64,000 nt of DNA from Candidatus Omnitrophota bacterium (GTDB lineage: Bacteria > Omnitrophota > Gorgyraeia > Zapsychrales > JBAZNR01), in assembly GCA_041649175.1 (NCBI GenBank), contig JBAZNR010000001.1, positions 322,332-386,331 of the forward strand. The letters run 5' to 3'. Every line of letters starts with the position of its first letter. The first letter of the stretch is position 1. The notes below the pieces were generated by a model. It did not search any database. It was given only the letters and a program-made list of their open reading frames with translations, and was not told the origin of the DNA. Position numbers and translations under genes: made by a program. Shown one piece after another: positions 21,001-64,000 of the stretch.

Positions 21001-21719
21001 GTAACAATGATAGACTGGAATTTTCCGTCTTTAATATTGATGCCCAGTGTAAATAAATTGCTTTTCCCGTCCTGATCCTGCTTGGTCTGATAAAAATCAA
21101 TTTTGTAAGCATCAATGACCGCCAAAAGGTTTTCTAAAACTACCCCTTGCCCTAAGCGATGACGCAAAGCGCTTCTTATTTCTACCGTTATATCCGTCAT
21201 GAAGACAACTTTGACCGGACGGATCTTCTTTAAAGCAAGCTCCCAATCAAGTCTTGGATTTATTTTGTAACGTTCCTGGCTGAACAACAGAACCTCGATC
21301 GTATCCCTGAGGATATCTTGATGATCTGATAAATATTTAATGTCTTCTTGAATGATCTCTTCTTCGCTTAAATGGGGTTGAAGGATACGCGTTTTTTCAT
21401 GTTCGAGGAATCCTAAAACAGCGGCCGGGTGGTCTTTCATCAGCTCAAAAACTCTCCAGTGAATAAGCAAAGTCCCTTCGCTTTCGGAGACCATCATCGC
21501 CGGGCCGGGTAAAGCAACGATGACAATGCGAGTTAATTTCTTAGAAACAATAAGATTACCTAAGTATGGAACGATCTCTTCGACCTGCCCGTAGAGCTCT
21601 TCTTCTTCATCATGGGTGAGAAAGCCATTATGGATCTTAGAAATAAAAAACTTGCTCAGGACATTGGCAGATAAAAATACGGTGGGCCTTTCAATGGCGG
21701 CAAACTCGGCCGGATAAGC
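1..21719 (-). CDS. Segment C of the giant ORF: C-terminal side, 3' end beyond the window start. The first in-frame ATG is at 21495-21497, but protein-like sequence begins at 21719.
   Basis: Frame decoded at 57, 181, 541, 781, 2101-2340, 3181-3300, 7381, 8761, 9841, 10021, 10561, 12901, 15361, 20281-20460 and 21481-21719. Confidence 0.6.
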
Positions 21720-45700: not shown

Positions 45701-48700
45701 TCTTGATTTTTTGCCGGCTGCCGTCATATCGCGGGAACAATAGATCTTTGGCTAATCCGGTAAAATGGTTTATGGTAGGTTCAACGATAACCAAACGCCC
45801 TAACTCCGGAATTTCTTCCAAAAGCGCTGAAACTTCCCAATCGGTTTGCCCCGGGCCGATCTCAAGCAGTGTTTTTTCGGAGAATTGAACTGATTTACTC
45901 TTTAAAAGAGCAACGCTGTCTCTGACGGCGTCCCTTATGTCAGCACGAGTAACATGCCAATGGCGCTGAACCCGATTAAAAGGAACTTGATCAAAGATGT
46001 GAACATATTTGCGATGCCCCGCAATGATCCTATTTTCTCGAGGAGTAATAACCGTATGGGGATTTTCAAAACGTATTTCATAAGTCCAGTGGGGAGAAAG
46101 ACGATTTAAATACTCCATCGCTCTGTCGCGGCTGACCAGCCAGGCTTCTTTAGGGAAATTGCTCGTAGATGTATTGACAACTTCCCCAAACAATACCGGC
46201 AACACAAACGGCGCAAAACCAAATCCGGCAAAGGCGGATAATGTTTCGCGCGAGTCTGTTGAGCGCGTCCTGTCATCGGAGACGCGGAACACAAGCTCAT
46301 AACCTATCTCGCCTGTTCTTAAAAGCAGGTCACGAACAACCAATGTATCGACATCAACGGCAATGATCGGTTTTAAATCGCGAAAAACTAATCTCTTGTT
46401 AATGCTGCGTCCAATGGCGGCCGATATAATTTTATAAGAAGAACGGGCCATTTCGCCGTCAAAGAATTGAAATATTTCCATTGTGACACGTTCTTCTTCT
46501 TGTTGGGCTAAACCACTTTCCAAAGATCCAGAAACAAAGTTGACGGATAAGCCTTCACTTGTTAAGGCCATCAACTCAGCTATATCGCTATCCGCCTGCG
46601 GGTCTATAGCGCGAGATAATTTATCAAAATCAATCTTTATAATCCCCAGCGGATACTGATTGATCATAACCAAACCATATTCGCCATGAGTTATCCGGCT
46701 TTCAAAAAGTTCGTCTAAAAGACGTTGGTCTCCGGCCGTAACATGTTGGAATAAGGCAAAGCGAATTTGCTGAGATTCGAATGGAAATACAATGGCCTGA
46801 TCGGTCAAGTAACGTAAGGCAAATTCTTTTCCAAAAAGCTCTCTGCTGGGCGAGCCTGCGCTAGGATTAACACTACCAAACAATACCGGCACAAACCCAA
46901 ATCCGACAAAGGCGGGAAGCGCTTGGCTTCCCGATAAATATTCATACGTTTCACGGCCGGTTTCGTGTTCAACAAACTTAAACGGCAAGTCATCAAGAAC
47001 AAAAGCTCCGGGCTCTTTTTTCATCATCAGGCTAACCCATCCTTGAAAATTATTATCAGTATCAATGCGAATAATATTTTCCGGTCTTAAACGATACTGG
47101 ATTTCGTTGATCACCATAGATTGGGCAAGGCGGCCTGAAGTATTTTGAGACGTAAAATCAATTTGATTAAATCCACTAAATAAATATCCTCCCGGACGAA
47201 GTAAATGATAGAGGGCTCTGTTGACCGCAATTTGATCGGGGATATAGGATAAAACACAATATCCCATAATGATCAAATCAAAGTTTCCTTCAATTCTTTC
47301 GAGGTTTTTTCCGTAACTTATATCCATCACATAATGATGCTGATGTAAACGGGCAAGAAGGTCATCCATATTAGAAAATGGATGAGAAAAATAATCGTAC
47401 CGTTGATGCTCAAAATATTCTTTTAAATGGGCAAGATCAAATAAAAGCCCTTCTTCCAGATTGATGGAATGATATTCAAAATCATACCCTTCTTCTAAAA
47501 GTTCAATGATACTAACCCCGCGCCCAACGCCAACGATAAGAACTTTAGGCATTGTTCCTTGTTCTCGATGTTGCCGTAATAACATTGTCAGAGCCCCCGT
47601 AAACCAACGCTTTTTGTCAGAATAAAGCTCGTGCAAAGACGCAACCCCGCGGCTCACCGCGTCTTCGCCGATCCGCTTCGCATAATTCTCAGGGACAGGT
47701 ATTTGACGATAAGATGCTAGTGTATTCCCCATGCTATCAACCAATCCAATGATTACCGGCACAAATCCAAATCCGGCGAAGGCGGAAAGTACGCCAACAG
47801 TTCCAGCGGTTGTCCGAGCGCCTTCAAAAGCCGCCGCGCGCAATTTATCCGCGTCGAGCTTGCGCAGATCAATATAGATCTTTCCGTATGTTTCTTTGTG
47901 ATCGGTTTTTCTGATCCGGTAAAGCCTTCCCGACTTCTTCCATAAAGAAAGGGTTTCAGCAAAGAACCTGGCGCCATCGGGCAAGGTCAGAGTTGAGCTA
48001 ACAGATGTAAAGCCTCGGCCTTTGACCCAGAAAAGAAGAATAGCTAAAGCGGTTTCGGAATACTGCGCCCGTTGATCTTTGTTCATAATACTGAAGATCA
48101 ACCTCGTAATACGTGTTCCCTTAGATTCAATGGCGAACACAATAGCGCCCTTGTCGGTTGTTATTTGCCCGTGAAGAATATTATCGCTGTTTTCTTCGAT
48201 ATGAAGCGAATCAACGATATCCTCTAAAGATGTCCCTGAAATCCACTCTCGGTATAAAGCCTTTTCTAATTCAAAGAGGTTTGGCGTAGCGGCAACCAGA
48301 AGGCTCGACACACCAAATCCGGCGAAAGCATGAACGGACACAGAGGCTTGTGAACCCGAAGAAACCGTTTTCTCGACGGGTAAAATAAATAATCCTTCCA
48401 AGCGCTTTACAACATCATTCATCGTTTTGGGCTTACGTTTTTTCCGATTTTCCTGCGACATCTGTTGGATAAGCAAGGAAATCCCGCTAATGCCGGCAAT
48501 GTCATCATCCATTTCCAGGACGAAATCGATCACTTTCGCGAAACTATAAATGTCAGATGCAAAAAATCTTTTGGTTTCCGGCGCGGAAAAACCATTTGAT
48601 CCACCTTTCATCGGCCGGCCCTTGCGTACGGACAAACCAAAATCAACGATCATCACTTCTTTAGCTGCGTTCACTAGAATATTGTCCGGCTTAATGTCGC

Positions 48701-51700
48701 CATGAACCCATCCGGCTTTATGGATACGCGCCAAGATCTTAGCGGCTTTGATGAGAATATCCATTTTGTCTTTGGCGCTAAAGTTAAGGAAAAGTTCTGA
48801 ATCTAAATCGTAGCCGTTAGAAATTCCTTTAAGCTTGATCCAGAAATTCCCTGATTTATCATTGCCCGCCGAAATAATTTGCGGAATTCCCTCTTTAACA
48901 CCACGCCTGCTTAGATCACGTAAGACAAGAACTTCATCTGTATTAAGATCGTGGGCTACACCGGAATTCGCGGTTACCTTATAAAAGACAGCTGAATCTT
49001 GCGGGTCTTGATAAATATTAGAGAAGCTGCCATTGCCCAAAACAATTGCAACGGGAATATCTTGCCCTGCGGAAATTTGAGCAGAAGTTGCTTCGGTCCC
49101 AATGCCGGTTTTTGGTAATAGGCTTTCATCGAATACGACTTGCCCTGGTAAAGCTGGGACATCGCCCCAGATAGACACATCCAATAGATGATCATCAGAA
49201 ATAGAAGAGGCCGCTTGATGATTAAACTTTTTCCACCAGCCACGGTAGGCGAAAAGTCTCAAGCGGCCTTTTAAACCAATCCAAGATAATTGTAAATTTA
49301 AACTCAAGAATCTTAATCTGCTTTGAACAGATTCAAACCATTTCTTGATCTCTTGACGATAAATCCATCCAAAAACCGCTATGCCGATACCAGGAATAAA
49401 AACCAACAGATGAAGCGGCACTAAAAAGACAAAGAGCTGATTTTCATGTTCACGATCTGTGCTAGCAGCCGCTAATCCATTCGGAGAGCCTGCTGGTAAG
49501 CGCCTGCCTATATTTTCTTCATCAGCAACAAAAGCAACCACACCACCTTGCTGATCTCTAACCGTCCTAAACCCGGAATACTCTTCTTGACCTGTCAGAT
49601 CAATCCAAGATTGCCATCCATCAAACCGCTTGATCCCCTGAGCACCGAAATTAGGACGATAAAAATTCCTGAGCAGCCCTTCCGTAGTCCATATGCTCGC
49701 CGTCGTTGCTTGATGACGTTCTCGGCCAATGGTCAGCGCCGCGGCTATAAGGACCCGGCTTAAAATACGTAATCCTTGTTTTCCTTTATTGCGATAATCA
49801 GGATGAACGAAAAGCCCGTCTCCTTCTTGAGAATACCTTAAGTCATTTTCCCGAAGGAAAATAATGCCATAACGCCTAAGGTTTTTCTCTGCTTCTTTAT
49901 TAAAACCGATATTATTAGAATTCCTATCAGCCGCTTCAAACAACATTTTACGTCCTCTATCCTTAGATGACGGATAGACCGCAAAATCCAAATACGCGAT
50001 GTGACGTTTTTTGCTTAGATCAAAAGTGTCTAATAAATAGTAGGCATTGCTCACCGTTGACACCACAGCAGCGCGCAAAGTAAAGAGAATTGTATTTTTC
50101 CCTGAACGATAAACCGTCCATCCTTGCTTGATAAGTTCGTCAAAATTTAAAACACCCTCCGGCCTTTTAACCATACCCAAGGCCACCAACCCAAATACCG
50201 GAAAGATCATGCTATGGAGAAGCTGCATTTTTTTGGCCTCGGAAACACCTTGATCGGACTCAAGCCGGTAGAAGTAAATCCCGGAAGCCTGGCTGGAAAG
50301 ACCGAGAGAAACGGTGTGGCGCCCGATAGAACGTATTCCAAGGTCAACATGCTGAACTTCGCGGCCTAAAACATCAAAGACCTTTAAAACAATTTTACGC
50401 GGCCGGTCTAATTCAAATTCAATAGTTGTTTGTCCGTTGAACGGATTGGGATAATTTTGTTTTAATTGGAAGCTTTGTGCTATCGGATGGAGAGGGTCGA
50501 CCGCTGTCGTCCCGGAAAGAGAATCAGCCATATTGATAATATCGTCTGCGGTCATTTCGTCGGTTACAGAAAACGCGGTCGCATCAAAATGAGTATCCAG
50601 CCACTGACGATCGTCATCGGAAATCGGACGCGTGTGCACATTAATGCCGATAAAATCATACCCTGTTGAGAACGGGCCGATCAAAGCCACGTTAAAGCGA
50701 TAGACTGTATTTCCGTCAATAACAACATAATTTCTTTCAACCGTATACGTGGTATCTAATCCGGCAACCGCGCTATCAAAGGCGGCATATGTCGCATCAA
50801 GATCGACATTCGTTAAAGAAGCCATCGTATTGTCGATCCAGTTATTGTATTGCGTGTATTCTGTATACGCAGGTATTTCAAAAGAAGCAACTCCTTCAGA
50901 TTGAAACATCAGAGCAAGTAATTGCGGGCTAAGATCGCGCTCTTCATCGTGAAAAGCAACCCAGGTTGTATCAACCCCAATACCATTTTGGCCCTGCCCG
51001 GCAAAAGCAGGAGTGAATGCAGTCGGAGAATTCGGCGGAGGAGGAATGTAAAGATATTCTAAAAGAAGTCCTTGCAGATCAAGATAATAATCCCTTAGAC
51101 GAAAATACATATAACGCTCACGCGTTGTCACGTCAAGCTCGTCCAAGGTGTGACGAGGTTCTTTAGTGACAACAGGCGGAGCGCGCGGATCATAAATTTC
51201 ATATTGTCCGTTAGATAAGATCTTAATATCACCAGAAGCAAGTGCCGCGCGCCAAGGCAAGACAACAAAGAATGCCATCATCATGCCGACAAATAACGTC
51301 ATAAATTTTCGCACAATGGGGCGCGTGATCGCTTGATTGATAGACGTTATGACCCCTTTGGGATCAGAAGGCAACATTTGCGCCCTTGAAAACGTTTTCT
51401 TATTTTGAAAAATAAATCCATCTTTTTTAAGATGTGAATAATAGAGCCCGGCAAAAACCGCTAATCCAACGATGGGAACAAAGATAAAAGGCGTGATGGA
51501 TAATAATTTATCTGTTCTTGTTCCGCCGATATGGTTGAGCGCTTTAAATTCTTGAGGCCGTTCGATATCAACGGTAACAATACCTTCGATATTTCTCACC
51601 AACGTATCAACAATTTCTTTATTGGTCACATAGTTAAATCCGGATAATCTAAAGACCAAAGTCCCTTCGCTGGGCTCACCGACCGGAACATCAACGCTTT

Positions 51701-54700
51701 CCACGTGCGCGACCAGCGGATTATCCTTAGCCACTAAAAGTTCTCCGATGCGCTTGGCAATGCCCGGAATATTTTTTACTAAAACTTTAACCGTAATACT
51801 AATACGTCCTGCCACATAGGCATAAACCGTAGCGGCGTCAACTAGCCCAAGGCCGATCGCTAAATGCAACTCATCGCGGTCAAATTGCGAAAAGCGCTTC
51901 GGAGAAAAACGAGCCGGAAGAAGAGATATGGACTTATCCGGGCCTACGAAAAGGCCCATCTTTTCTGTAAATTCATTGATCAGCCTATAGGTCGCTTCTG
52001 TCATTCCTACCTTAGAAAATTCTTCTTTCAAGCGCCGTTCGCCCTCACGAATAAGAGCTAATTTGAATTCATCGGCAGTCATTTTTCTTTTCTGCCCCTT
52101 GGTCATAAATTTCCGGACAAAATCTTCATTTTCAAACCTTGTTATTAACTCTAAGGATAGCCGTGTGCGCAAAAGCTTGGCCAGCGAAATAAGCCCTTTG
52201 TCTTTGATATTCTTGGCAGAAATAGCAAAACCGGTGATCTTATGGCTAAGCGCATTTTGAAAGATCATACCTGTTTCTAATGGAGTATTTTCCAAAATAG
52301 CGCGAGATAGCGGTGTCGCCGGAGAAACCGCATCCAATAAGGCATCATCAAAGATCATAAAACCTTGATACCCTTCATCAAGGCCAAGTTCGGGATAATA
52401 CGCCAGATCAAGCGCGACAGCTCCTTGGGGAAGCTCAGTCACCAAAAGGCTTGATCCGGATTTTCGGTCTCTTTCCTTTAGGAATCCGACATAAATATTC
52501 CCGTTTAATGAGTTGTAGATCAGGTTCAAATTATCCCTCGGGTCTTCGGTGAGCATAATAGCGTCGGAGATCAGTTCTTGATTGATCTTTTGGCTTTTTA
52601 AAAACCCTTCTAATTTAAATAACCAATGAGGCTTGACCGCTTCACTGCCGATGCCATAACGATAGCGCCGGTAATCCTGATGGCTCATGATCTGCAGCTC
52701 CCAAGGACGGATGCGCATATCCTCTTTAAATTCCACCACGTCCGTAAAATCAACGTGAATAGCGTAATAACCTTTTCGTTTAAACTCCGCATTCTCGGCT
52801 TTGCCTTTTAGCTCCCAACTTAATTTTCCAAAGGCTTTATCAGGGTCACTTACTAAAACCATGACCCCTAAAAGATCGGGCAGTTCGGCTAAAGCACTAC
52901 GGCTTGAGCGGGAAGAATGGATCTTTTCATAAATAGCGGCAATGCTTTTAGCTCGCACCATAACGATCACGCTATCATCGCCATCTTCCCTGATAAGAGC
53001 CTCGAAACGTCTTTTCACTTCGTCTAAAATAGCTTCAATATCGCCATAATTTTCCACGCCTAAATAGTCGGCAACAGCCGCCTTTGTTTCCTGATATTCT
53101 TTAGGCATGGTGATCATCATGACTCTGTTTTGCAAACCAATGACCATGCGGGGAAAATCAATACGGTCGGCCAGCGGAATAAAGATGTGTTCTATTTTCT
53201 TAAGCATCGCTTCTTTTTTATTCTTAGCATCTTCAGCCTGGCGGCTGTCTTTGCGGGCTTCGGCTTCTTTTTCCCTAACGGCGGCCAAACCGGCAGAAAT
53301 AATAAGATCGGCCGCCGCTAACATCAAGACCCTGATCCGGCCGTCGGTCAATCGGATGACCATATTCATATAATATTGGACAGCCCATCTTCCTGCCAGC
53401 GCGCGGACCACTTGATTTAAATACGGAAGATTGATGATCTCACGGCTGCGCTTTATGGTAGGGCCGATCACTTTTAGATCTTCTGCCCTTGAGGGGAATT
53501 GGGCGGTTAACTGTTCTATGACCTCACGTCGGGTCCTTTCCGAAATATGCCAAGAATGAAGAAGCCCGGCAATGATCGTCGTATCCACGCCTAGCCAACG
53601 GGCTAAAACATAAGCCACATCTAATCCGTGCTGCATAATGCCTTCGGCGGTGTTGAAGCGTTCATCTAAAGAAGAAAGAGGAGTCGCTTTTAGTTTTTCT
53701 AATACAATGCGATAAGCTTGTTCAATGATGCGCGCATCAGCATTAGGATAATTGTTTTTAAAGGCACCGGTAACGTCGGATAATTCCATATTTCCTTCCC
53801 CATACGGAAAATCCGCCACAATGCCGAAAACCGACAAACCAAAAGGAGAGAAGATAAATGAGCTGAGCTTCGTTTCTCCTGTTTCTGCTATTTCAGCCGG
53901 CTTAGATACTTCTTCGACCAGTTTTATCGGCGTAACAGCTGCCATCGTCTCCACAGGCTTATGGTTCGGCTTTCCTGACCTTTTTGTCATACTGCGATCG
54001 GTAAAGTGAACAACGATCAAATAAACGATCATCCCGCCGATCATAGTCGCTAAGAACTTTGTCGTGCTCACATGATAGGAGCGGGCATACGCAGCTGCAA
54101 AGGCGGGAGAAGTAAGAATAAAGCTTAAAATTAAGGCGATCATTCCACTCGGTAAAATAGCGTTAAGGACTGTTTCGTTACTTTCTCCATCGACGGCGGA
54201 ATTATTTTCCCCTGAGATTTTGATCTGATAAACTTCGCTGTTTTCCATGCTTAAGAAAGGACCCATATCTTGGCTGACAAGCTTAATTCCCGGGAAACGC
54301 GTTAGCAAAAGATGCCTGGTCGCCTCGGTGGTGACCACCATCGTAAAAATTCCTCCCTTAAAATGAGTCTTTACAAAATCCGCAAAGAAGTCGAAGACGC
54401 GCGACGCGAATCCTTGTCCGGCAAGGCTTCTATGAAGAGCAATGCTGCCGGAATCAATGTCGATCCGCCCGCTATCATGCCGCTTAACACTGAACTCTCT
54501 TAAGAATAAAACACTGCCATCACCTTCATAAACATGGCTGTAATAATGAACAGCGTTTTCTGTCTCGAGGTAGCGATTTCGATTAACATTCGATCTCCCT
54601 CTGCCTTGATACGGCTCAAAAAGAGCAGATTTTTTAACAACAATGAAGCGATAGCTTGTAATTTCATCCCGCTCATCGATAACAGAAGCATAAACATATT

Positions 54701-57700
54701 CATCTTCTACCTGGCCAGCCAAAGTAGACAGTTGCGCTTTCCAGTTCGAGTAAAATACTTTTTCTCTCTTAACCCCATACACATGAATAATAGACAGCGG
54801 TTTACCGCCATTTATTTCTTCTAATTTTTCTTTAAGCGGGCCGAGCCATTCCATATTTAAAAAACCAATCGGCAAAGAAACAAATAAGGCATAAAGTTTC
54901 CGCTGCGAAGACTGTTCAAATTGATCAGGATTAGCGGCTTTAACCATTCCAATAAAATGTTCCCTGCCAAGATCTCGTGACCGCAAGAAAGAAAGATCAA
55001 TGCGATTGTGGCTTATTCCGTTAAGTCCGTACAAGCGCAACAAGGCGTTGGCAATATTCATATATATCGAATTGTTAACTTGCCTAAATAACCAGCTTGA
55101 GTAAAGGTTTGTAACGACGTCAACGGCGATCACTTCAACCGCGGCTTCCAAATTTTGACTTTCCGGTGCAATATTCATTAGTTTTCGTAAGCCAGCTAAA
55201 ACACGTCCTAATTGTTGCTCGATGACCTCATGCTCCTGGATAAATTCTCCGGCAACATCTCTCATGTCGGCTTCGTTGTAATGCTTAACTCGGTAAACGG
55301 TATTGCCGTCTTCGCCTAAGATCATGGTCGTATTAAGTTTAAGCATAAGCTCGACGATGTCTTTTAAGCTTTTGAGTTCAATATTGCGTAAGAATTCTAC
55401 GAAGATCCGGCGAACCGCAAAATTATTTTTCAGGTAATTTTTTTGATTTTCCGTTTTTGGAAAAGGATGTTCCTCTGGGTATCTGACCATCTCAACCCAA
55501 GGAGATACCAGGCTATAAGTCCAATTTAATTGGGCGACAAAACCGAAAACTCCAGAAATACCAAATCCCGGGACAAAGGCATTGATTGGGCTCGCTCCTT
55601 GAACATCTTCCCCGTTTTCATCGAAGGCGATCCGAATTAATCTTGCTTCTGTGTCTATAAAAACAACATCATTTCTATAACGGATACTGCCATTGACCTT
55701 TGCGTACAGCCGTTCGGCTTCTTGATCATGATGATTATGGCGCGCGATAGCCGCCAAGATCTCAATTTCGCTTCTGTGGCGTTCGTTAAACTTCTCATCA
55801 TCAGAATTTCCAAAGCGCTTCAAATATTCGGATAAAAATTCTAAGATATTCTTCGCGCGAGTCGTTCCGACAACTTCCGCCATACCGCTTAATAACCAGC
55901 CGACATAATCATATATATTGCTGTACGGCTGTTCATCATCTTCCAAGGAAACCGAACTATAATCCAAAAGCACAATAAGAAATTCGAGTTTTTCTGTTTC
56001 CTGCAAATTAAACATGATGCTGGGATCTAAAACTAAACGATTAAAGTTAAAGTCCATCCAAACCTTATCGGTTGTTGGCATATTCGCTAAATAATAACCG
56101 TCAAACTCTCCTGATAACATGGCTAATCTCATCCAAGCCTCGGCGTAATGAACGATCATCATCTTAATATTGAGAGGATTACGATGGGTAAATTGCGCCG
56201 GATATTGATACAACATTTGTAAATTGGAAAATCCGTTGCGGCTTTCATGCAGATAAATTCCGGTATTGTTTTCTAATGTAAAAGCACCTGGCTTAAGGAA
56301 AAATCGATAACCTAAACGATGCTCTTCATTGACCGCTTCAATGGTTTCAAAAAGGCGAGAAATATCCTCGGCTGGCATGGCAAGTTGCTGCTTGGAAATC
56401 GCATAAATACCTAAATGATAAACCTTCATTCTGTTCTGGTAAGGCAATTTGGCCGTTAACGATAAGGGGAGCTTTCCTTCTTCTCGGGCAACGCGCTCCA
56501 TACGAGCAAGTGATTCACTGCCTTCGGTAGCCGACTGCACGGTGATAACAGCGCCTTCGGGGATTTGTCCGTCAGATAAGATCTCTTTAATGAAATGATC
56601 ATCACTAAAAACATTGAGAAGCGCTCGGGCTAAAAAGTTTGTTTCGCCTAATTGGCTGGATAAAGCGCGGCGCACGCGGTTACGGATAGGCGCGGGGATA
56701 AAATTGTTAGGATCAATAAATTGAAGGCCTCTAAAATCAAATGTGGATTCTTGCGAGAAAACGGTTCCCCATATTCCAAAAAATAAAAACATAAGAGGCG
56801 CAAACGAATGAAGTTTTTGAGTTTTTTCTCTGTATCCGACGGCACCAGTATTGTCTAAAGCGCTTTCAAATAATAATCCGTATTTTTGGATCATAACCGC
56901 AATGTCAACTTTTTGATGCGCGCCGATAAAAGCTTGTTTCATTCCATCGATCCATAACGTTGACCGGCCTGCATGGTATTGACGATATGAAGTTATTGCT
57001 TCTGTTAAATGTTGGGCTAATTGCAACATACCTTGTTCTTCGAAGGTGCGAATGATATTTCCGTCCCCGGATTCAAAGCGGCGGACAACATCTTCAAAAT
57101 TCCATCCCTTGAACACATCTAAAAACCATCCTGTTTGACCGTGAATAATATATTCAAGCGGCCCGCCGGTAGCTGTTGCGATATTGTAATGGCCATTAAA
57201 AGCCGCACGCTGGTCGCTGGTGCCGCAGGCTTCTCTGGTGGGGCGCGGCATACTGACCCAAACATCACTGGCGGCAATAGCCTTTTGCATAAAATCAATG
57301 CCGCTTTCGGAAACGAAAACAAATTTACCCTTTAGTGCGGGATCTTCCATCATGGACCTGAATTGCCAAACCCAATGACGCCCGATATCATCCAAGCCGC
57401 GCCCGCCGATAAGAACATTAGCCCCTAATCCCGGTTTTTCTCCCCACGGCGTTTGATACATTTGATCGGGCTCCCCGGTGATCCATTTGATCAGAGGAAT
57501 GATGATGCCTTGTTCTTTGTAAGCCACTAAACGGCGCACCAAACCGACCAAAGGACGGCTTGTGTCGTTAAAGGTGAATTCTGCGCCAAAATTTTCACTC
57601 ATAAAATCATTAAGGACGCTCTTTTGTCTTTGACCGATCTCAAAGAGTTTTTGTCCGGAAATATTTTCTAAAGAATCCAGCTCTTTAACATATTCTCTTA

Positions 57701-60700
57701 AATCGCCGGAATACCAAAGGGTGGGGTCTGAGCCGTTAACGATCCCGACGATCTTTTCTTTAAATTCTGGGAGGACAACGATCTTTGTGATTTCGGCGTG
57801 TTCTTCGGCAACGCCGTTGATGACATTGGCCATGCGCGCCAAACCAATAGCCGCGTGGGCAACATAACCATCGGCAACAACTTCTCTGGCTCCATCCCAA
57901 TCGCGGATCAGATCCGGCCCTAATAAGGTTTTAAGCCACTGGGCCGGCCAAGAAGGAAGCGCCGCGCGTTCGGGAGTGTGAGTAGTCATTACAATTTTTG
58001 TTTTATCAAAAATACTTTTCTGGTTTTGGCTATTGAACCAGTCAATATCATTTTTCATAGCGGTCGCCACAAAAACCAATTGTGGTTCATTGAGCCGCGC
58101 GACATTGGGGTGGATCTCTAATTGCTTCATTAATTCCACATAGGCGCGGGCAAAAAAGCCGAATTGGCGCGTCTGGCGTTCATCGCCGGGATACAGGCGG
58201 TTGAAGATAGAATCTTCGCCTAAATGGCGGATCAAGAATATCGGAATACCATTACGATTGATCCAATAAACCTGTACGGTATTATGCGGATGATGATTGA
58301 AATCAACACTAAAGGTAAGCGGCACGAGTTGATTGCGGTTATCTAAGATCACCACCGGTTTGATGCCGGATTCATTTTGCCAATTGATCTGGACACGGCT
58401 TCCCTGCGCGTCGTAATAACCTTCGTAAAGCGGCATCACGCCGATAGCGGAGAATTTTTTCAAGAGATGATATGCACCCCAGGTTTCGCCGGTTAAAAAT
58501 CCAAGCCCGCCGGCGGCTAGGGCTTTTTGAGCCAGGCCTTTTAATTCCGGTAAGAAGGCTTCCAGGGAAACATCGGTCACGATCGGTTTGCCGGATGTTC
58601 TGATGCTATTTAACATCGGCCCCAGCGTGTCATCGGCGATAACAAAACCAAATATTCCAAATCCAAAAAAGCTTGGAGTAAAACTGAAAAGTCCCGTTCT
58701 TTCGCCTGTGGATAACTCATTAGGGACGTTTCTGTTCTGTATCTCAGAACTGTCCCTTTGAGCTATAGCCTGTGAATTCGGGGACAGTTCTGAGCGCTGC
58801 GGCAGAAACGTCCCTAAATCTAAAATAGACCGTATTAATGATTTGCCCGTAATGCGTTTAATGGCCGGCCCGTCTGTTTTTATGGAACAGCCCAGTAATT
58901 CTGATAAATGGAAGAATGTTTGAATACCAATTAATATTTTGAGAGAAACTGAATTAACAAAGAATATCGTGATGCCGCCGGCAACAAAAAGGAAGTGAGT
59001 GGCCAGCGGCGCAAATAACACAATGAGGCGTTGAGAATCAGTCGCACGTTCGCTTCTGTGGTGCCGCACATTATATCGGCTCATCAACCATGCCGGAATG
59101 ATGTGCATCAAGGCATGAATAACGGGAACGCTAAACGTAGTAGCGGCAACAACGGCGCTCATCATGGTGATGCGCGATAAATCCAACGCTATTCCAATGT
59201 TATCTTCGATTTTTAACGCGATGAAAGAAGCAAAAATAGAGTAAACGAAGTATAGTAAAGACCCAAAGCCGATATCTTGTTTCTGCCAGTAATGATCACT
59301 GATAAATCCATTTTTGTTAAGCCCTAAGAGCTGACTTTTAATATATTTGAATATGTTTTGGATTCCCAAGCCAAAAACAATCGGGCCAAAAGCGAAAAGC
59401 TTTGAAGTGCGTCCGACTTCTGCCGTAACTTTCTCAACTAGATTTTTTTGCTCAACGGAGACAACGCCGAAACGCTCGGAAGAGTTCGGGATCCAGCCAT
59501 GAGAAAAATCAGTTGTCACGACAACCGTTGGAGTTTTGACTAAGTAAGCGGCGTGAACAATAGCTGTATCGATGGTCACCACTTGGTTAACTTGGCGTAA
59601 AAGCTCAATAGTGGCCGCGCGGCTTTCCCAGTCGGTGTTGACTTGGCGGCTGATATCCCAAAGCTTTACGTTAGGGTGTTGCGAAAATCCTTCGATCAAA
59701 TATCTTAAACGCGCCGAAACCACATTTTCAATATTGGTATTAACGATCACCGTGAAGCCTTTTTGCAAAAGCTGTTCAATGATCCCGGCCCAATTTTGCC
59801 TGGATGAATCTTCGGATGATGTACTAGCTAAGAAGTTAACGAAAATAACCGGCGATGTAGAGGAAATACTGTTTCCGGTAAAGAAATCCCGAACGATTTT
59901 CTGAGTTTGAGAGAAGCTCGGCAGAATATCTGTTTCGCTGGGAAGCTCAAATCCATATTCTAATAAAGCGGCGCGAATACCCACATGAGCATCTAATCTG
60001 CCCCATGTTTGACCGCTTAAAATATTGATCACATTACCGCCGTAAATATCAATGCCATGCATATTGATAACCATGTCGTACAACGGGAAGATCACGTCAC
60101 GTAATGTCGATATCTGATAAAGGCTAGGCATATCAAGCTGGGCAAAACGAGCTGTCTTGTGATCGTTTAATTCTCGATAGGGATCCTCCATGCCGTTTAA
60201 ACTCAAGGCAAAGATGCTCAAATTCTCTAAATTCGGGAAATTATGCGAAAGTGTTTTTGCGATGATCGGTAAGTAAGCCAACATCTTTCCCCATGTTCCG
60301 GTCCCGGCATAAATGAAGACTCTTTTTACTTTTGAGAAATCTAAGCTTCGCACTTCTTCTGCTCTCGGCGTTAAATCTCCGTTATTGAATAATGATTGGG
60401 ATCTGGAATCTCCCTGCGTCGCTACAAAGCCAAAAACCGCCACAGGAACAAACGCGAAGCTGTGAAGAGCGCTGACACTAGAATTTGAAATAAAGGCTGC
60501 TGCCGGGTGATTCCCCAATCCAGCCACGGAAAGATTGGAATCATTTTTATTCGCCGGCAGCAGCCCAATATTTTTATTCGCTAAACGCCATACGCTATAC
60601 GCTGAGCCTTTAACTCTGTCCCCTATTTTTACAAACCAATCTCTAAGCAAAGAAACGATTCCGGAAATTCCTAACCCCAGCACAAACGCGGCGAGGTTTT

Positions 60701-63700
60701 GGCCGGAGTTTTGATCGGAACCCTTAGAGCTCTTGGGATCAAATTTGACCATAGGAACAATTTGTATCTGCGCTTCCATACCTTCGGATTCAACCAGTCG
60801 ACCTTGATCATTAACAAACAATCCTGCCTCTTTCGCAAACATTAACCCGGCACCAAAATCATCACCGTTTTGAAGAAGAGCGCGCACCGTATCAATATGT
60901 TCTTGCGTGGTCAGCGTATTCGGATCGATCTTCTCTTCTTTTAAGTAATTAATCACCCAATCGCCTAATTTTTCTATGATCAAAGCACGGATTTGAACGT
61001 CGGTGAGCTCGCGGATCTTTTGAGTTTCTTGGGTCTTTTGGGTTGATTGGGTCTCTTGAGTTCTTTGGGTCTTCGTCATATCCCAAAGACTACGTAGCCT
61101 AATATAAGCAAAGAATGCTCCCAGGCCAATCAGCGTTGAAGCAAAGATCGTGACAAGCAAAGTAAGAAGAACGGTTCCGACAACAATATCCAAAGCCAAT
61201 TTAGATACGAATTTGATCGTTTTGACGGCAAAGTTTTTAACACCCTTCCAACCGAACTTGCGGTAAACAATAGCACTCACGACAATCGTTGCCATTATTT
61301 TCGCGACGGCCAGACTAAAAATGATCGGATGGGACGCAACAAAACTTTCCACAAATCCTTTAAGATTTAAGAATAATCCGGCTAACATAGCGATCGTCGC
61401 CGCAACAATTGTTGTCGGGTCAAAAAATCCTCGATCACTTCTAGAATGATAATGTTTCATGCGATAACTAAGCGTCACACTCGGCAACATAGCCGTCGCG
61501 AGAGTTAAAATCGCAACGCCCGCGCCCACGTAAAGCACGATGGGTGAACTTTCGATAACGTAAAATCCGAACGTAAATATCGTCGCCACAAACCCGATCA
61601 TAAATGTCTTGGCGGCAAACTTGTGATTGTGATGACGGCGTTTCCAGGCAGATTTTAAATTTGATTTAGCAATGATCATCGCTATCGTCAGCGCGAGAGA
61701 AGCCGCGATCACAATCTTCATTCCTAAAAGAACATTATCTTCATTGCTCAACAAACCGTTTAAGGAAGATGTTAATCCGCCAAAAATTCCCAGAACCGGC
61801 ATAAACGTGAACGCGTTGAGAGCAATTTTTTTGGTGAGTTCACGTTCTAAAGCGGCGATGACCGTATTGATCATGGCGTTGGCTTCTTCTATTTCTTCAC
61901 GGGTCGTAAGTCTGCCTACCGCGTGGAATTCGGCAGAATCATATTTATTTTCAAAAGTTTCAAAGGCGGCGATCGTTTTAGAGTCGTTGATAAGTTTTTT
62001 CATGACGATCAGGCCAATTTTTCCAAAAACCAGAGACCACCAGCCGCGCTGAGCCTTATAGTTAACGCCATCGGTGCTATGAACAACACTATTGGGAAGC
62101 TCATCACGGTAATCGCTTTTCAGTTTTTTCAAATCAACAATGGCTTTTTCAATGGAAGATTGCCGCTCCTGAGCCAAGATACGCCCAAGGGATTTTTGTA
62201 ATGTTTTAATGTCTTTTTCGATAGCGTCATGAAGAGGAAATGTCGTTATGCCGTTTGACCTTACGGGAATACTTAAAGCTCTCCGGGCTGATTTTTGTAA
62301 TTGCTCAATGGATCGTTCGATATCTTCCCGGCCGGCTTTCGCGGCAATGACTTTGACGACTGTTTCACGTAAACTTACATCATCTAAAATTTGAATAATA
62401 TATACGATAGCCTGATGAGTGCCAAATTCACCTAAAGCTTCAATGGTATCAAGCTTAAACTTTTGTTCTTTTTCTTTTCTTAATAATTGCTTTCCTAAGA
62501 TCTCAATAGCTTTTTCGCCTAAAATCACTTGAACCGCTTTAGCCTCGCCGTGGCGCCTTAAGAAACGCACTTGCCAAGGCGTTGGAGTTTTTATTCCATA
62601 GGATTTGAGAATAATGCGTGCCAAAACTTTTTCATTTTTGATCTCTTTATAATTAATAACCCAGGCCAAAGCCACCACGGCTAACGAAAGCGCGAGTGTT
62701 TTAAAGCCGTCTGAACTTAAAATTCCGTTAAGATCCATCATCGCCAAAACGGGCATGAATGTAAACGCATTAAGAGAAACCCGCCCGCCGTTGGCACGCA
62801 AATCGGCCACTTCTTTCATTAGCGCTTCGTGGAATTCCGCAACCAATTTATGATCTGAGGTAGAATACAATCGTGATGTTGCGGCGATCACTTGCCTTAT
62901 CGTCGTATAGCGAGAAATAGTTACGAAGATATTGTGAACTTCCTGGGCTACTTCGCCGGGGCGAAGTTCACGAGCGTGTTGGCCAAGAATGCCTTTGGTT
63001 AAAATATAGTCCAGGTCAATATTCAGGATAATGCCTTCGGTAAAATTAGGCGCATTGCCGCGCATGACCGCTTCTAAGTCGCTGGAAACGGCCGACCAAT
63101 GGTCCATATCTTCGGAAAGGACTATGCGGCCGTGCTTGGGATAAATCCAATACACATTGCCGACCAAATTAAATCTGAGTAAGAATCCTATCCAATTGCC
63201 GCAGTCGATCTCTACGGCGCGGCTATTGGTTAAAATCCCGATAATATGCGTATCATCGCTATGATAATCAAGAAGGACATGCGGTAAATGATTGGAGATC
63301 ACGCCTTGACGGATAGCCTGCTTGATGACAGAAAACGTTCCGCCGTGATCATCAAAAATATCGAACGGGATACGAGAGGCAGTTGCAGGCTGATTCCCCA
63401 ATCCAGCCACGGAAAGATTGGAACCATTTTTAGATGCCTGCAACTGCCCAATTCGATTATTTTTTAAATTAGTTTTTCCATTTTTATTCGCGGCATTACG
63501 CGCGAGGACGATCAAGATCCCTAATGCAAAACCAAAAGCGGCCGGAATAAAGATAAAAGCTTCCTCTTGCCCTTGTTTGCCGAAATCCTTATGAACATCT
63601 TCCACAAACACCACTGTATACATCCAAGAGTTGCCGGGGCCAAAATCGCGGGAAAGACGCACCAACCCTTGTTGTTCTAATCTTTCTAAAGTTTTCTGCA

Positions 63701-64000
63701 TACCAACATTGTCGTATTCGGTCGATACGGTCATTCTGTTCTTTTTATTAACCTGAAGGAAGCTGATATATTCTTTGACCAAGGCAAGGCCGATTCCGGA
63801 TTTACGATATTCTTTTCGTACGGCAATAAAGTTAAGCTGAGCCTCATCATCCGTCAATAAATACACCAAATAACCGGCAACTTCCTTGCCGTTTTTGGCT
63901 AGAATAAAATTCATTTCAAAAGAAGCTTCGCTGGTAAGTTGAGCATCAGCCCATTCCGTTAACATTCCGTTCCAGTCAAACATCTTTTCCGGCGCTATGC
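1..64000 (-). CDS. Interior of one giant minus-strand ORF (more than 21,000 codons in-window, both termini outside the window). It is a chimeric chain of enzyme- and regulator-like modules, locally frame-disrupted at 21720-21900 and 58742-58801.
   Basis: About 60 hand-decoded 60-nt blocks between 57 and 63960 are all in the same frame (plus-strand codon start divisible by 3), protein-like and stop-free. Contiguous decodes include 31501-33300, 50041-50250 and 21481-21720. Module junctions at 541-600, 20341-20460, 29761-29880 and 31501-31560 have no stop, no ATG and no RBS. The other two minus-strand frames are full of stops. Confidence 0.8.
150..240 (-). other. HTH segment (sigma region 4-like), the last recognisable module before the window start.
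   Basis: Decoded SDRLNLTRAGVIKRAKRLNL at 181-240. NFSEVVINGLPESLGKPGD at 2-58 runs out of the window. Confidence 0.35.
540..602 (-). repeat. Conserved hydrophobic junction motif (protein-level repeat), instance DLNAFAGGLLFGSFFWGTVNA.
   Basis: Decoded codon by codon. Consensus over at least 45 instances: L-[NS]-[AS]-F-x-[GP]-[FL]-x-[PF]-x-x-F-G-x-V. Confidence 0.8.
780..960 (-). other. J-domain (DnaJ-like, HPD motif).
   Basis: Decoded RLKRKVSMLTHPDIGASLAH at 781-840. Manual translation of the preceding residues gives NYYKIARAVFGINPDELHEMEEDYIK. Confidence 0.5.
3100..3985 (-). other. Module: sigma-70 family factor domain (regions 2-4).
   Basis: Decoded ENPKEHWYLEDIAGIFELTKERVRQIVGKKTKELGVKFKKF at 3181-3300 (region 4.2 HTH). 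Region 2-like LTPEEE and TINWIRHRVHDL...RTIRIP blocks upstream are from manual translation, with AINAAKTILGKPVHNL decoded at 3901-3960. Confidence 0.6.
6600..7600 (-). other. Module: PPP-family (calcineurin-like) metallophosphatase.
   Basis: Decoded AQGATKIVLTGDIFGKGK (GDxxDRG-type block) at 7377-7430. Manual translation adds FIGDIEGD upstream and LYGSNEVE downstream (GNHE-like). Confidence 0.5.
8400..8900 (-). other. Module: SAM-dependent methyltransferase (PrmA-like GxGxG fold).
   Basis: Decoded ESKVLVIGPGNGID at 8796-8838. Confidence 0.45.
9000..9950 (-). other. Module: inositol monophosphatase / CysQ / FBPase-family phosphatase-like.
   Basis: Decoded NFGHTNFIWVIDPIDGT (IMPase motif W-[IV]-D-P-[IL]-D-G-T) at 9846-9896. 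Confidence 0.6.
10300..11000 (-). other. Module: HD-domain segment (SpoT-type metal-dependent hydrolase motif).
   Basis: Decoded AVALLHDVLEDY at 10570-10605. Confidence 0.45.
12900..13010 (-). other. HTH segment, sigma-70 region 4-like.
   Basis: Decoded DGQPWSREQIAKYLDV and VSPQRINQIISIFEKPLKAAM at 12903-13008. Confidence 0.4.
14300..16600 (-). other. Module: TPR-like helical repeat region.
   Basis: Decoded GVVYTVGICFQETGHRKEALA at 15361-15420. Nucleotide periodicity and manual translation suggest repeated A-x-x-x-Y-x-x-A-L-x-L-x-P helix pairs. Weak. Confidence 0.3.
20368..20427 (-). repeat. Junction motif instance QLNAFIGGLIPLAFGLVDPS.
   Basis: Decoded at 20341-20460 with flanks YYVDGFKKPADA / KENDLKARVESALEILFERKERLTRGNIA and no stop. 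Confidence 0.8.
21720..21900 (-). other. Frame-disrupted segment 1. About 60 codons read cleanly only in the frame whose codons start at plus coordinates with remainder 2 mod 3. The main frame has 8 stops here (21720, 21735, 21753, 21795, 21813, 21822, 21846, 21897).
   Basis: The shifted frame gives GEETLKALADILKRFIEDNTALAWTYEGRDRRDAYEQEIRRLHRDSPQLELGTVPDLRGF, with no ATG and no stop between 21923 and 21722. The implied +1/-1 indels lie in short runs (minus-strand AAA at plus 21902-21904 and TTTAGG at plus 21719-21724). Confidence 0.7.
21736..21773. repeat. Palindromic element 1: a perfect 14-bp inverted repeat (cagggacagtcccc / ggggactgtccctg) with a 10-nt loop, inside frame-disrupted segment 1.
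   Basis: Read directly. Left arm 21736-21749, right arm 21760-21773. No U-tract follows on either strand. Confidence 0.85.
21897..58742 (-). CDS. Segment B of the giant ORF (about 12,000 codons). The first in-frame ATG after the upstream stop is at 58614-58616, but coding clearly continues from 58740, so the true start is uncertain. It ends at a TGA at 21897-21899.
   Basis: Same frame decoded at many points between 22441 and 58740. The plus-strand triplet 'tca' at 21897-21899 reads TGA on the minus strand. Confidence 0.6.
22965..25400 (-). other. Module beginning with a lipoprotein-like signal peptide (RRKFLQQFAVIVALAAVSGPLLEGCSKK); remainder unassigned.
   Basis: Decoded KFLQQFAVIVALAAVSGPLL and LEGCSKKNPTEPQEEEPLTP at 25262-25380. 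Confidence 0.45.
27495..29080 (-). other. prs: Module: ribose-phosphate pyrophosphokinase (PRPP synthetase, Prs)-like.
   Basis: Decoded VIIVLDDIISTGGTM (PRPP-binding site) at 27690-27750. Manual translation also gives RRFPDGEVEV... and ...VFMPYFAYARQ (the Prs RFSDGE and PYFGYARQ-type blocks). Confidence 0.65.
29082..29160 (-). repeat. Junction motif instance GSISLLNAVIPSFGMVIGYLAKLIKGLLG. Its 3' 30 nt are identical to 29763-29792.
   Basis: Decoded. The DNA string caatcctttgatgagcttcgctaaatatcc occurs at 29082-29111 and again at 29763-29792. Confidence 0.8.
29763..29850 (-). repeat. Junction motif instance QLTALNAVIPTFGMMVGYLAKLIKGLLG (duplicate of the one above).
   Basis: Decoded at 29761-29880. 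Confidence 0.8.
29830..31475 (-). other. Module: polytopic membrane segment of unknown function.
   Basis: Decoded DVAEQELNAFTFGFILPFALFGLVNS at 31475-31555. Manual translation of the remainder shows multiple hydrophobic stretches down to AAAVYVQILSQQQLFIEGNH (30061-30120, decoded). Confidence 0.4.
31550..33320 (-). other. aceK: Module: isocitrate dehydrogenase kinase/phosphatase (AceK)-like.
   Basis: Thirty consecutive lines (31501-33300) were decoded with no stop. They include ...YRDKRAYMIGRI... and the C-terminal ...GRVCCYDYDEIDSILNYNFRDKPKPQDDWESMMDESEWISVSDGDVFPSEL..., which closely resembles the AceK C-terminal region of E. coli ([25 protein letters not shown]...PWYSVSPGDVFPEEF). Confidence 0.65.
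34500..35435 (-). other. Module: L-asparaginase / GatD-like amidohydrolase.
   Basis: Decoded PRPAGIVLTHGTDT at 35103-35145 (asparaginase hinge motif). The upstream VIVLNAGGTINMAGE (TGGTIAG-type) is from manual translation. Confidence 0.55.
37410..39075 (-). other. gpmI: Module: cofactor-independent phosphoglycerate mutase (iPGM, GpmI-like).
   Basis: Decoded QGPLLFIIMDGVGLGS at 38962-39009 (iPGM N-terminal block) and NGITIVTADHGNADEM at 37640-37690 (iPGM C-terminal ADHGN block). Confidence 0.7.
42170..43560 (-). other. Module: tandem LOG-family (Rossmann-fold nucleotide-binding, PpnN/YgdH-like) domains.
   Basis: Decoded LIFFPGGMGTMDMLFEA (the LOG PGGxGTxxE motif) at 42395-42445. An upstream half with GGGPGVMEAG comes from manual translation. 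Confidence 0.55.
46930..47740 (-). other. Module: class I SAM-dependent methyltransferase-like, paralog 1 of 5.
   Basis: Manual translation gives KVLIVGVGRG...FEYHSIN...DLIIMGYCVLSYIPDQ...LLRPGGYLF. HHYVM was decoded at 47325-47340. Paralogs lie at 45420-46185, 44600-45365, 39140-39915 and 36440-37345. Confidence 0.45.
47800..50165 (-). other. Module: receptor-like Hanks-type Ser/Thr protein kinase. An N-terminal domain and a TM segment precede a kinase core at about 48450-49250.
   Basis: Decoded AGWVHGDIKPDNI (catalytic loop HGDxKPxN) at 48675-48710 and IVDFGLSVRKGRPMKGG (DFG) at 48605-48655. Confidence 0.7.
50200..51440 (-). other. Module: secreted-type beta-rich protein ending in a T9SS (Por) C-terminal sorting domain. 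The CTD spans about 50200-50459.
   Basis: Decoded QNYPNPFNG at 50432-50459, the canonical start of the T9SS CTD. Then ...ASGIYFYRLESDQGVSEAKKMQLL, running with no stop into the next module: HSMIFPVFGLVALGMV (50165-50215), EGVLNFDELIKQGWTVYRSGKNTILF (50041-50160). Confidence 0.7.
51520..53825 (-). other. Module: RelA/SpoT homolog, long-form (p)ppGpp synthetase/hydrolase (HD, synthetase, TGS, ACT).
   Basis: Decoded TIIAGLLHSWHISE (HD-domain LLHD-type block) at 53535-53578. The synthetase-like (...GYYAIHVDF...) and C-terminal ACT-like (...IEGIVTVDIERPQ...) segments come from manual translation and were not all re-verified. Confidence 0.5.
56830..58640 (-). other. Module: alpha-glucan (glycogen/maltodextrin) phosphorylase, GT35-like.
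   Basis: Decoded DVWVSMPRPTREACGTSD at 57215-57270, which resembles the GT35 PLP-site block R-P-x-x-E-A-S-G-T-S-x-M-K. The Lys position reads Q here (EACGTSDQR). The remainder is from manual translation. Confidence 0.55.
58722..58815. repeat. Palindromic element 2: a nested hairpin. Outer 13-bp stem agggacgtttctg / cagaaacgtccct (58722-58734 / 58803-58815), inner 12-bp stem cagaactgtccc / gggacagttctg (58744-58755 / 58780-58791), 24-nt apical loop. It shares the GGGACAGT/ACTGTCCC core with element 1.
   Basis: Read directly. A frame TGA at 58743-58745 sits at the foot of the inner stem. Codons 58742-58801 read only in the shifted frame (PQRSELSPNSQAIAQRDSSE), and the main frame resumes at 58740 (EQNRNVPNELSTGERTGLFSF). 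Confidence 0.85.
58743..64000 (-). CDS. Segment A of the giant ORF as a strict gene caller would see it: N-terminal side, 5' end beyond the window, ending at an in-frame TGA at 58743-58745 inside palindromic element 2.
   Basis: The frame is open from 63960 down to 58746. The plus-strand triplet 'tca' at 58743-58745 reads TGA on the minus strand. Confidence 0.6.
58830..59345 (-). other. Module: membrane fatty-acid hydroxylase / sterol desaturase superfamily-like (His-box enzyme).
   Basis: Decoded PVIHALMHI (H-x3-H) at about 59105-59130 and IPAWLMSRYNVRHHRSERA (H-x-H-H) at 59045-59100. Flanking segments are hydrophobic. Confidence 0.5.
59400..60420 (-). other. Module: glycosyltransferase family 9 (ADP-heptose:LPS heptosyltransferase)-like.
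   Basis: Decoded HGIDIYGGNVINILSGQTWG (60001-60060) and VTIDTAIVHAAYLVKTPT (59540-59595), which resembles the GT9 motif T-x-D-S-G-x-x-H-L-A-A-A-x-G-x-P. The rest comes from continuous manual translation. Confidence 0.45.
60508..60548. repeat. 41-nt DNA repeat copy B.
   Basis: See copy A. Confidence 0.8.
61021..61075 (-). repeat. Short in-frame tandem repeat encoding a T/Q-rich run (TKTQRTQETQSTQKTQETQK).
   Basis: Plus strand reads gagtttcttgggtcttttgggttgattgggtctcttgagttctttgggtcttcg, with a period of about 9-12 nt. Confidence 0.6.
63391..63431. repeat. 41-nt DNA repeat copy A (tgattccccaatccagccacggaaagattggaaccattttt), encoding ...SNLSVAGLGNQPA.
   Basis: A 40/41-identical copy lies at 60508-60548 (...SNLSVAGLGNHPA). 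Confidence 0.8.
63560..64000 (-). other. Module: GNAT-family N-acetyltransferase-like, C-terminal part (start beyond the window).
   Basis: Decoded ...NFIAVRKEYRKSGIGLALVKEY... at 63790-63870 (GNAT motif A, R/Q-x-x-G-x-G/A) and TEWADAQLTSEASFEMNFIL at 63901-63960. Confidence 0.5.

Follow-up and report, generated by a model that had tools for sequence, protein, structure and literature searches.

A probable REP-type palindromic repeat translated in frame in an inter-module linker of a giant Omnitrophota gene

In-frame palindromic repeats in protein-coding genes were reportedly described by Ogata and co-workers in 2000 as Rickettsia palindromic elements (RPEs). A stable hairpin inside a coding region is also a feature of translational bypass and programmed frameshift sites, of which the T4 gene 60 hop is an example. 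REP (repetitive extragenic palindromic), REPIN and BIME elements are mobilised by REP-associated tyrosine transposases (RAYTs; Bertels & Rainey 2011, PMC3116915; PMC3337134), and inverted repeats flanking the transposase gene form the defining REP-RAYT arrangement. REPs carry conserved terminal tetranucleotide tags, GTAG or CGTC (PMC3733652), and intragenic REPs, mostly dimers, encode 20-30 amino acids in frame (PMC3733652, Di Nocera et al. 2013). Here we analysed a 64,000-base stretch of contig JBAZNR010000001.1 (the window), which is occupied by one giant open reading frame (ORF), and a nested palindrome within it, element 2. Our preferred reading, held with moderate confidence, is that element 2, and probably also a second palindrome, element 1, is a REP-type palindromic repeat (a REPIN- or BIME-like cluster of inverted doublets) that occupies, in frame, part of a linker in the giant gene. 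The event, an in-frame REP-type palindrome, is of a known kind; the setting, a giant Omnitrophota gene, is new.

Giant genes of the 'Archaeovorin' type have been described in Omnitrophota (West-Roberts et al. 2023, bioRxiv 10.1101/2023.11.21.568195; also 10.64898/2026.06.07.730766). The ORF studied here resembles them in its tens of thousands of codons, its many transmembrane (TM) helices and its central-metabolism enzyme domains. The words palindrome, hairpin and inverted repeat are absent from both papers; therefore, intragenic hairpin elements are not described there. The biology of these genes is almost unknown, and the elements reported below are discrete hairpins, defined at the nucleotide level, in their inter-module linkers.

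A six-frame stop count under the standard code showed that minus-strand frame 2 is stop-free across the 64,000 bases, forming a single ORF of 21,332 codons that exits the window at both ends. An earlier note on this DNA had described element 2 as a frame disruption, with a main-frame TGA at 58743-58745, about 20 codons (58742-58801) readable only in a shifted frame, and a compensated local shift at each element. The apparent shift arose because these coordinates were one base off. The TGA lies at minus-strand 58746-58744, out of frame, straddling the in-frame codons TCT-GAG, and the supposedly shifted peptide PQRSELSPNSQAIAQRDSSE is the ORF frame itself, its codons running from 58802 down to 58743. 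In this frame the region reads ...SILDLGTFLPQRSELSPNSQAIAQRDSSEIQNRNVPNELSTGERTGLFSFTPSFFGFGIFGFVIADD..., and the same frame is used before, within and after element 2; the ORF is equally uninterrupted at element 1. Since the ORF is continuous through both elements, no frameshift or hop is needed. That the palindrome causes or marks a local frame disruption, overcome by programmed frameshifting (+1/-1) or ribosome hopping, would agree with the very stable hairpin and with the TGA inside it on the coding strand, but with 0 stops over 64 kb, an out-of-frame TGA and a 'shifted' peptide in the ORF frame this explanation deserves practically no credence. Unlike bypass and programmed frameshift sites, element 2 has no frame change, in-frame stop or coding gap, and there is nothing to bypass. 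A false lead is thereby removed: there is no recoding at element 2. An alternative genetic code, first suggested by the near-absence of long ORFs in a listing of the window, was also rejected, one frame being fully open under the standard code; long ORFs were missing because the listing omits those that run off the window ends.

The nested hairpin placed by the earlier note at 58722-58815 does exist, and its stems are longer than the 13 and 12 bp claimed: the outer one has 15 bp and the inner one 14 bp, both perfect (Table 1). The order of the parts is TTAGGGACGTTTCTG-TTCTGTAT-CTCAGAACTGTCCC-(24 nt)-GGGACAGTTCTGAG-CGCTGCGG-CAGAAACGTCCCTAA, and the four arms are four copies, in alternating orientation, of the 12-mer GGGAC[GA][TG]TTCTG. 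Element 2 can be read either as two adjacent 12-N10-12 inverted doublets, 24 nt apart and with two central mismatches each, or as a perfect nested hairpin of 15 and 14 bp. The 8-nt strands of the internal loop (58735-58742 and 58795-58802) are not complementary. Because the spacers are unrelated to each other, the element is not a simple inverted duplication. The GTAG tag is absent; the outer arms terminate in ...CGTCCC and the inner ones in ...TGTCCC, recalling the CGTC/TGTC tags, but here the tag is inside the stem.

The predicted RNA fold of the 114-nt region bore out the proposed nested hairpin, with -50.5 kcal/mol against -23.3 ± 3.3 kcal/mol for dinucleotide shuffles (z = -8.24; 0/200 as stable). 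For the GGGAC-core hairpins (type A, to which elements 1 and 2 belong), the sense strand folded at -49.8 and the antisense strand at -56.0 kcal/mol, giving no sense-strand advantage, and there were no G.U pairs. This result agrees better with a palindrome at the DNA level than with an mRNA structure under selection. Neither element was flagged in a scan for intrinsic terminators, and no T tract follows the stems. Inspection of the arms for the GTTRRRY/RYYYAAC core sites of attC revealed none. No direct repeat of the target-site duplication kind, as in miniature inverted-repeat transposable elements, flanks element 1 or 2, the flanking TTA/TAA and CA/TG belonging to the palindromes. An Rfam scan of the window (E<=1) gave one unrelated weak match only.

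The core was then sought in other genomes, one per GTDB species, with the pattern GGGACRKTTCTG-N(4-30)-CAGAAMYGTCCC, and matched at no fewer than 120 loci. Among the 141 matches listed, more than 85% were a single variant (GG; GGGACGGTTCTG/CAGAACCGTCCC); GT and AG, the variants of the window, were rarer and the AT variant was absent. This dominance of one variant is not the distribution of random hairpins. Both outside and inside the constant core, stem sequences vary from genome to genome yet remain complementary, and the family layout, x-core-x' ... x-core'-x', is that of a unit followed by its own reverse complement. The core was present in Lachnospiraceae and other Bacillota, Bacteroidales, Omnitrophota, Planctomycetales, Aminicenantes, Elusimicrobiota and Thermotogota (L001-L120, L128), with many copies in several genomes such as RUG12082, AC2029 and RUG375. 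In Lachnospiraceae AC2029, recurring tandem pairs of 12-N7-12 units, 60-86 nt apart, resemble the layout of element 2.

Omnitrophota contributed 9 loci from 6 metagenome-assembled genomes (MAGs) to the matches listed. One MAG (L027, L048, L093) contains nine perfect 13-22-bp GGGGACGGTTCT hairpins in 24 kb, located in short gaps between genes. Further copies are thus not always intragenic, a question the earlier note had raised: core hairpins are intergenic in other Omnitrophota and in many other phyla. Compared with Rfam, the REP hairpins of Omnitrophota matched only generic microRNA-precursor models, below threshold; a literal literature search for the core returned unrelated primer-type matches only, and the type A pattern was found at 2 loci only in a viral collection. 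The MAG with the nine hairpins also carries a second family of perfect palindromes, GTAGACCTACGCGGTCTACA-tata-TGTAGACCGCGTAGGTCTAC (L027 1518-1561, 4533-4574 and 7590-7633; L093 3959-4004), which begins with GTAG, the classical REP tag. Another Omnitrophota MAG sequence, L043, has at its very contig end a perfect palindrome of 69 bp (7342-7483; 4-nt loop), most probably an artefact of fold-back during assembly.

Clustering of all ORFs of the matched loci revealed a family of RAYT proteins. They match Pfam Y1_Tnp with E = 1e-13 to 1e-16, and two of the three proteins scanned exceeded the cut-off of 80 bits for NCBIfam NF047646 (REP_Tyr_transpos), with 84.6 and 88.1 bits. The gene is present in four loci (L047, L058, L037 and L103), each time with core hairpins at most 100 nt away (4/4). 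Both element 2 variants, CAGAAACGTCCCC and CAGAACTGTCCCC, occur in L103, in the same 8-kb locus as the RAYT gene and about 5.5 kb from it. The core GGGAC[GA][GT]TTC thus stands beside Y1_Tnp/REP_Tyr_transpos genes in other genomes, not in the window's own; comparison of the RAYT proteins with the window by tblastn gave no match in 64 kb. Judged by sequence, the core is common to element 2 and to RAYT-flanked intergenic repeats, those of the same phylum included. A 12-nt core conserved across phyla with flanked RAYT genes is unusual, because REPs are normally species-specific.

Element 2 has in common with REP, REPIN and BIME elements the short palindromic unit, the inverted doublets folding into a longer hairpin and the clustering of alternating units, and its 12-nt core flanks RAYT genes in other genomes, where it is multi-copy and intergenic. 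It differs from them in lying inside an ORF and being translated, in the missing GTAG tag, and in a core conserved across phyla where classical REPs are largely species-specific. Intragenic REPs and RPEs are likewise in-frame palindromic repeats, mostly dimers or clusters, that add about 20-30 residues to permissive parts of a protein and leave the ORF intact; here too a palindromic repeat lies in frame and the ORF stays open. The sequence family and the host phylum are different, however, and the host is an ORF of more than 21,000 codons in which the site is an inter-module linker beside a TM helix. RPE and CGTC-type repeats also lack a dedicated flanked RAYT, whereas the GGGAC core has one in other genomes. 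The likeness to RPEs is used here as a working analogy, host phylum and core being different.

As a REP-type repeat, element 2 may have arrived by RAYT-type single-strand hairpin mobilisation, or it may have been retained from a former intergenic region when modules fused. It would persist as a tolerated passenger because it is stop-free in the frame used and sits in a tolerant inter-module linker. The ORF passes straight through it, and it is translated as a 33-residue linker, with no frameshift, hop or stop. Ribosomes would have to unwind an mRNA hairpin of about -50 kcal/mol, which may cause a pause. No sign of selection of RNA structure on the sense strand was found for type A.

Several points weigh against a REP origin. 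The window contains two such elements only in 64 kb, and their arms have 8-9 nt in common. High copy number and the RAYT gene were seen in other genomes, the window representing 64 kb of its own organism, and other Omnitrophota contigs (L125-127, L200-202) are without the core family. The family was found with the element's own arms, and membership is judged by an 11/12-nt core, exact matches of the rarer variants and hairpin context. Element 2 does not have the x-core-x' layout typical of the family, its core itself forming the stems, and no target-site duplication is visible. Finally, the perfect stems, the TM-adjacent position and the presence of a hairpin of another family (type B, described below) at the equivalent junction of the giant ORF L123 also fit a selected function.

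The core of the element 2 arms, GGGACAGT/ACTGTCCC, recurs in element 1, as the earlier note had noticed. Element 1 also folds much more stably than expected (z = -7.98) and lies about 30 amino acids (aa) after an HPr-like (HPr-sized) domain. For the 8-mer GGGACAGT, 7 occurrences were counted in the window where 0.51 were expected, and the window holds two elements (6 core-like arms) and three solo GGGACAGT sites. In 200 shuffles that altered neither the protein sequence nor its codon usage, the expectation was 0.135 perfect hairpins with a stem of at least 13 bp and 0.045 with one of at least 14 bp; 6 and 4, respectively, were observed. This excess over synonymous shuffles indicates that the palindromes are real and due neither to chance nor to the protein that the DNA encodes. 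Chance or faulty assembly is scarcely believable as an explanation of element 2, given the four stems of at least 14 bp, the fold (z = -8.2), the same core variants in independent assemblies and the frame that the element keeps open. The idea of repeated palindromic elements inside the coding frame thus holds, elements 1 and 2 having one core, hairpins exceeding the shuffles and five type B copies lying in the ORF, while the frame shift attached to it falls.

The solo GGGACAGT copies (14886-14893, 32602-32609 and 45361-45368) have no palindromic partner and could be decayed half-sites or chance G-T-V codons. Three more perfect hairpins lie outside both families, at 24328-24340/24365-24377 (13 bp), 18255-18266/18363-18374 (12 bp) and 20136-20146/20157-20167 (11 bp). 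The first consists of Ala/Gly codons (ATGGCGGCGGCC/GGCCGCCGCCAT), and low-complexity coding sequence may explain it.

Table 1. Positions of the elements, their parts, the neighbouring features and the related loci (L numbers denote loci from other genomes).
Feature	Locus	Position	Strand	Description
Single ORF	window	1..64000	minus	21,332 codons, open at both window ends; enzyme domains chained, TM-rich linkers between
Element 2	window	58720..58817		98-nt nested palindrome; in-frame product LGTFLPQRSELSPNSQAIAQRDSSEIQNRNVPN (aa ~1727-1759 of the window ORF)
Element 2, outer stem, left arm	window	58720..58734		TTAGGGACGTTTCTG; core copy GGGACGTTTCTG at 58723-58734; 15-bp perfect complement of 58803-58817
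Element 2, outer stem, right arm	window	58803..58817		CAGAAACGTCCCTAA; core copy CAGAAACGTCCC at 58803-58814
Element 2, inner stem, left arm	window	58743..58756		CTCAGAACTGTCCC; core copy CAGAACTGTCCC at 58745-58756; 14-bp perfect complement of 58781-58794
Element 2, inner stem, right arm	window	58781..58794		GGGACAGTTCTGAG; core copy GGGACAGTTCTG at 58781-58792
Element 2, apical loop	window	58757..58780		24 nt
TM-like segment	window	58635..58691	minus	aa ~1770-1788, LFSFTPSFFGFGIFGFVI; hydropathy scan; position of the signal peptide in stand-alone homologues
Alpha-glucan-phosphorylase-like module	window	56823..58643	minus	aa 1786-2392, directly after the TM
Element 1	window	21737..21774		CAGGGACAGTCCCCA-N8-TGGGGACTGTCCCTG; 15-bp perfect stem 21737-21751/21760-21774, 8-nt loop; in-frame product (H)RDSPQLELGTVPD
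Type B copy B1	window	63378..63448	minus	loop CCGTGGCTGG at 63403-63412
Type B copy B2	window	60495..60565	minus	
Type B copy B3	window	49208..49269	minus	
Type B copy B4	window	25996..26076	minus	
Type B copy B5	window	9047..9121	minus	two U.G wobble pairs in the outer stem, valid in sense RNA only
Type B copies elsewhere	L123	8578-8640 and 9851-9917		
Type B copy elsewhere	L124	7758-7833		
REP-family locus with RAYT gene	L047	4236-5218		inverted units: GCGACAAG-GGGACGGTTCTC-GTTTTGTCGC upstream, GCGACAAATC-GAGAACCGTCCCC-GTGTCGC downstream
REP-family locus with RAYT gene	L058	1542-2459		core hairpins on both sides
REP-family locus with RAYT gene	L037	5173-6149		core hairpins on both sides
REP-family locus with RAYT gene	L103	53-1063		core hairpin on one side; the other side runs off the locus

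The host ORF contains the Pfam domains GNAT, GT5/phosphorylase-like, iPGM, LOG, asparaginase, AceK, PRPP synthetase, HPr and IMPase (inositol monophosphatase), together with GT9-like, methyltransferase and histidine-kinase ATPase domains and TPRs. A hydropathy scan detected 59 TM-like segments between domains, and the 21,332 codons include 24 Cys only. The closest homologues are named Candidatus Omnitrophota or Omnitrophica, and the ORF is most likely an Omnitrophota giant gene. A TM-like junction motif, (S/A)F(A/T)xFxPxxFGF, recurs at aa 1770-1788, 1175-1193, 12664-12682, 5693-5711, 5920-5938 and 13683-13701 (examples: LFSFTPSFFGFGIFGFV, SFAFVPVAVFGFV, GFVAFTPVVFGIV and AFAGFGFAPFVLPVLFG); in appearance it is a linker or signal-anchor that is repeated between modules.

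The 33 residues encoded by element 2 are hydrophilic and lie between a membrane domain (weak FA_hydroxylase-like match) and a TM helix that starts 11 aa downstream and is followed by the phosphorylase-like module. This module is the only part in common with two other giant ORFs, L123 and L124, the similarity (53% identity) setting in exactly behind the TM. It is also found in stand-alone proteins of 650-1200 aa from Omnitrophota and Elusimicrobia. In an alignment with P0009, P0018 and P0020, the signal peptide at the start of these proteins coincided with the TM of the giant ORF, which places the hairpin at the position that the intergenic region of a stand-alone gene would take. No database sequence aligned with the linker itself within the protein searches and collection scans made. 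The first protein search gave one partial match, with the element outside it; a metagenome scan and a second protein search returned module-level homologues only (43-64% identity, with unrelated upstream sequence); a protein scan of genome contigs for an orthologue of the linker gave no match; and an exhaustive search of representatives around element 1 gave 2 weak matches. GGGAC-core hairpins were not found upstream of the stand-alone homologues.

When the module of the window was compared with L123, L124, P0001 and P0002-P0026, its neighbours were found to vary: in P0001 it adjoins a PRK domain, whereas the adjoining sequence in L123 and L124 is unrelated. The presence of the same module beside different neighbours, and also as a stand-alone secreted protein, suggests that modules may be shuffled between giant genes. 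In addition, a 'C-terminal' Por_Secre_tail domain is internal to the ORF (aa 4516-4590), which hints that modules derived from stand-alone secreted proteins.

Element 2 could be a relic and not an insertion: an intergenic REP hairpin trapped when separate genes for secreted or membrane proteins fused in frame, its own frame staying open under selection for read-through. In favour of this, the modules are ordinary stand-alone enzymes, the N-terminal signal peptide of the homologues matches the TM right after the hairpin, the Por_Secre_tail domain is internal, element 1 comes just after an HPr-sized domain, and core hairpins fill short intergenic gaps in other Omnitrophota. We nevertheless consider such a relic unlikely: both stems are perfect, though an old relic should have decayed, most junctions have no such hairpin, and the module order differs among the window, L123, L124 and P0001, indicating that the junctions are not ancient.

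The second family of hairpins, type B, is defined by the 10-mer CCGTGGCTGG. The window has 5 copies of it, all on the coding strand, where 0.02 would be expected. Three more copies in the giant ORFs L123 and L124 are again on the coding strand, so that the orientation is sense in 8/8. In all eight, CCGTGGCTGG is invariant in the apical loop and is enclosed by a stem of 11-18 bp whose sequence is different each time. As a control, 78 occurrences of CCGTGGCTGG in 70 unrelated viral loci were analysed, and 2 had an enclosing stem of at least 9 bp. The 10-mer is read in all three frames (SVAG, PWL, RGW) and is therefore conserved at the nucleotide level.

The variable stems of type B could not be aligned by MAFFT; they were detected using the motif as anchor, and the excised arms were aligned. 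In this alignment, 100% of the cells pair and 11/11 pairs covary, a result that is partly circular, the arms having been chosen for complementarity. Copies B1 and B2 have nearly identical inner parts and unrelated flanks, and the 3 of their 13 aligned outer-stem pairs that differ are all compensated (3/3). The sense strand folds better in 6/8 copies, with 17 G.U pairs against 7. A reversed element would keep the frame open in 7/8 copies; avoidance of stop codons alone therefore does not explain the orientation. Type B has no Rfam match and has been seen so far only in giant ORFs. It looks like a structured element specific to giant genes and leaves functional junction hairpins as a possibility. 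In three copies (minus-strand 26024-26041 and 9067-9084; L124 7796-7813), the loop runs on into GCTGGTGG, which is the Chi octamer of E. coli; as Chi sequences are species-specific, the match is probably a coincidence.

All hairpin elements of the window, types A and B together (7/7), lie at most 50 aa from a TM-like segment, the random expectation being 0.29, and in L123 a type B hairpin and a TM precede the phosphorylase-like module that follows element 2 and a TM in the window. The first observation also counts in favour of the REP-type reading, and both speak for a selected RNA (or single-stranded DNA) structure that marks a module junction as the equivalent of type B, with a REP-like core that is exapted or coincidental. 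Such a structure might make ribosomes pause ahead of the next TM and domain, block 3'-5' decay of the mRNA or provide a site for processing. It would also account for the covarying stems, exclusive sense orientation (8/8) and sense-specific G.U pairs of type B, and for the perfection of both element 2 stems despite unrelated internal-loop strands. Type A, however, has neither G.U pairs nor sense bias, its antisense strand folding slightly better, and shows no conserved asymmetric motif. Moreover, the search for GGGAC-core hairpins in three other giant ORFs (L123, L124 and L127) yielded none, and the core is common to intergenic, RAYT-flanked repeats of unrelated phyla. We thus regard a selected structure as a tentative alternative, a good deal less probable than a REP-type repeat.

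If the two families are taken together, the junction hairpins, type A as well as the sense-oriented, covarying type B with its CCGTGGCTGG loop, might be signals that define and shuffle the modules of giant genes and not passengers. They would act as in-frame single-strand recombination sites for an enzyme of the HUH/RAYT type, or as RNA signals coupling translation to the membrane insertion of [TM + enzyme] units. We consider this decidedly improbable; if true, it would explain why the same module stands beside different neighbours in different giant genes. Types A and B provide handles on the assembly of giant genes from stand-alone-like modules and on the translation and stability of transcripts of at least 60 kb.

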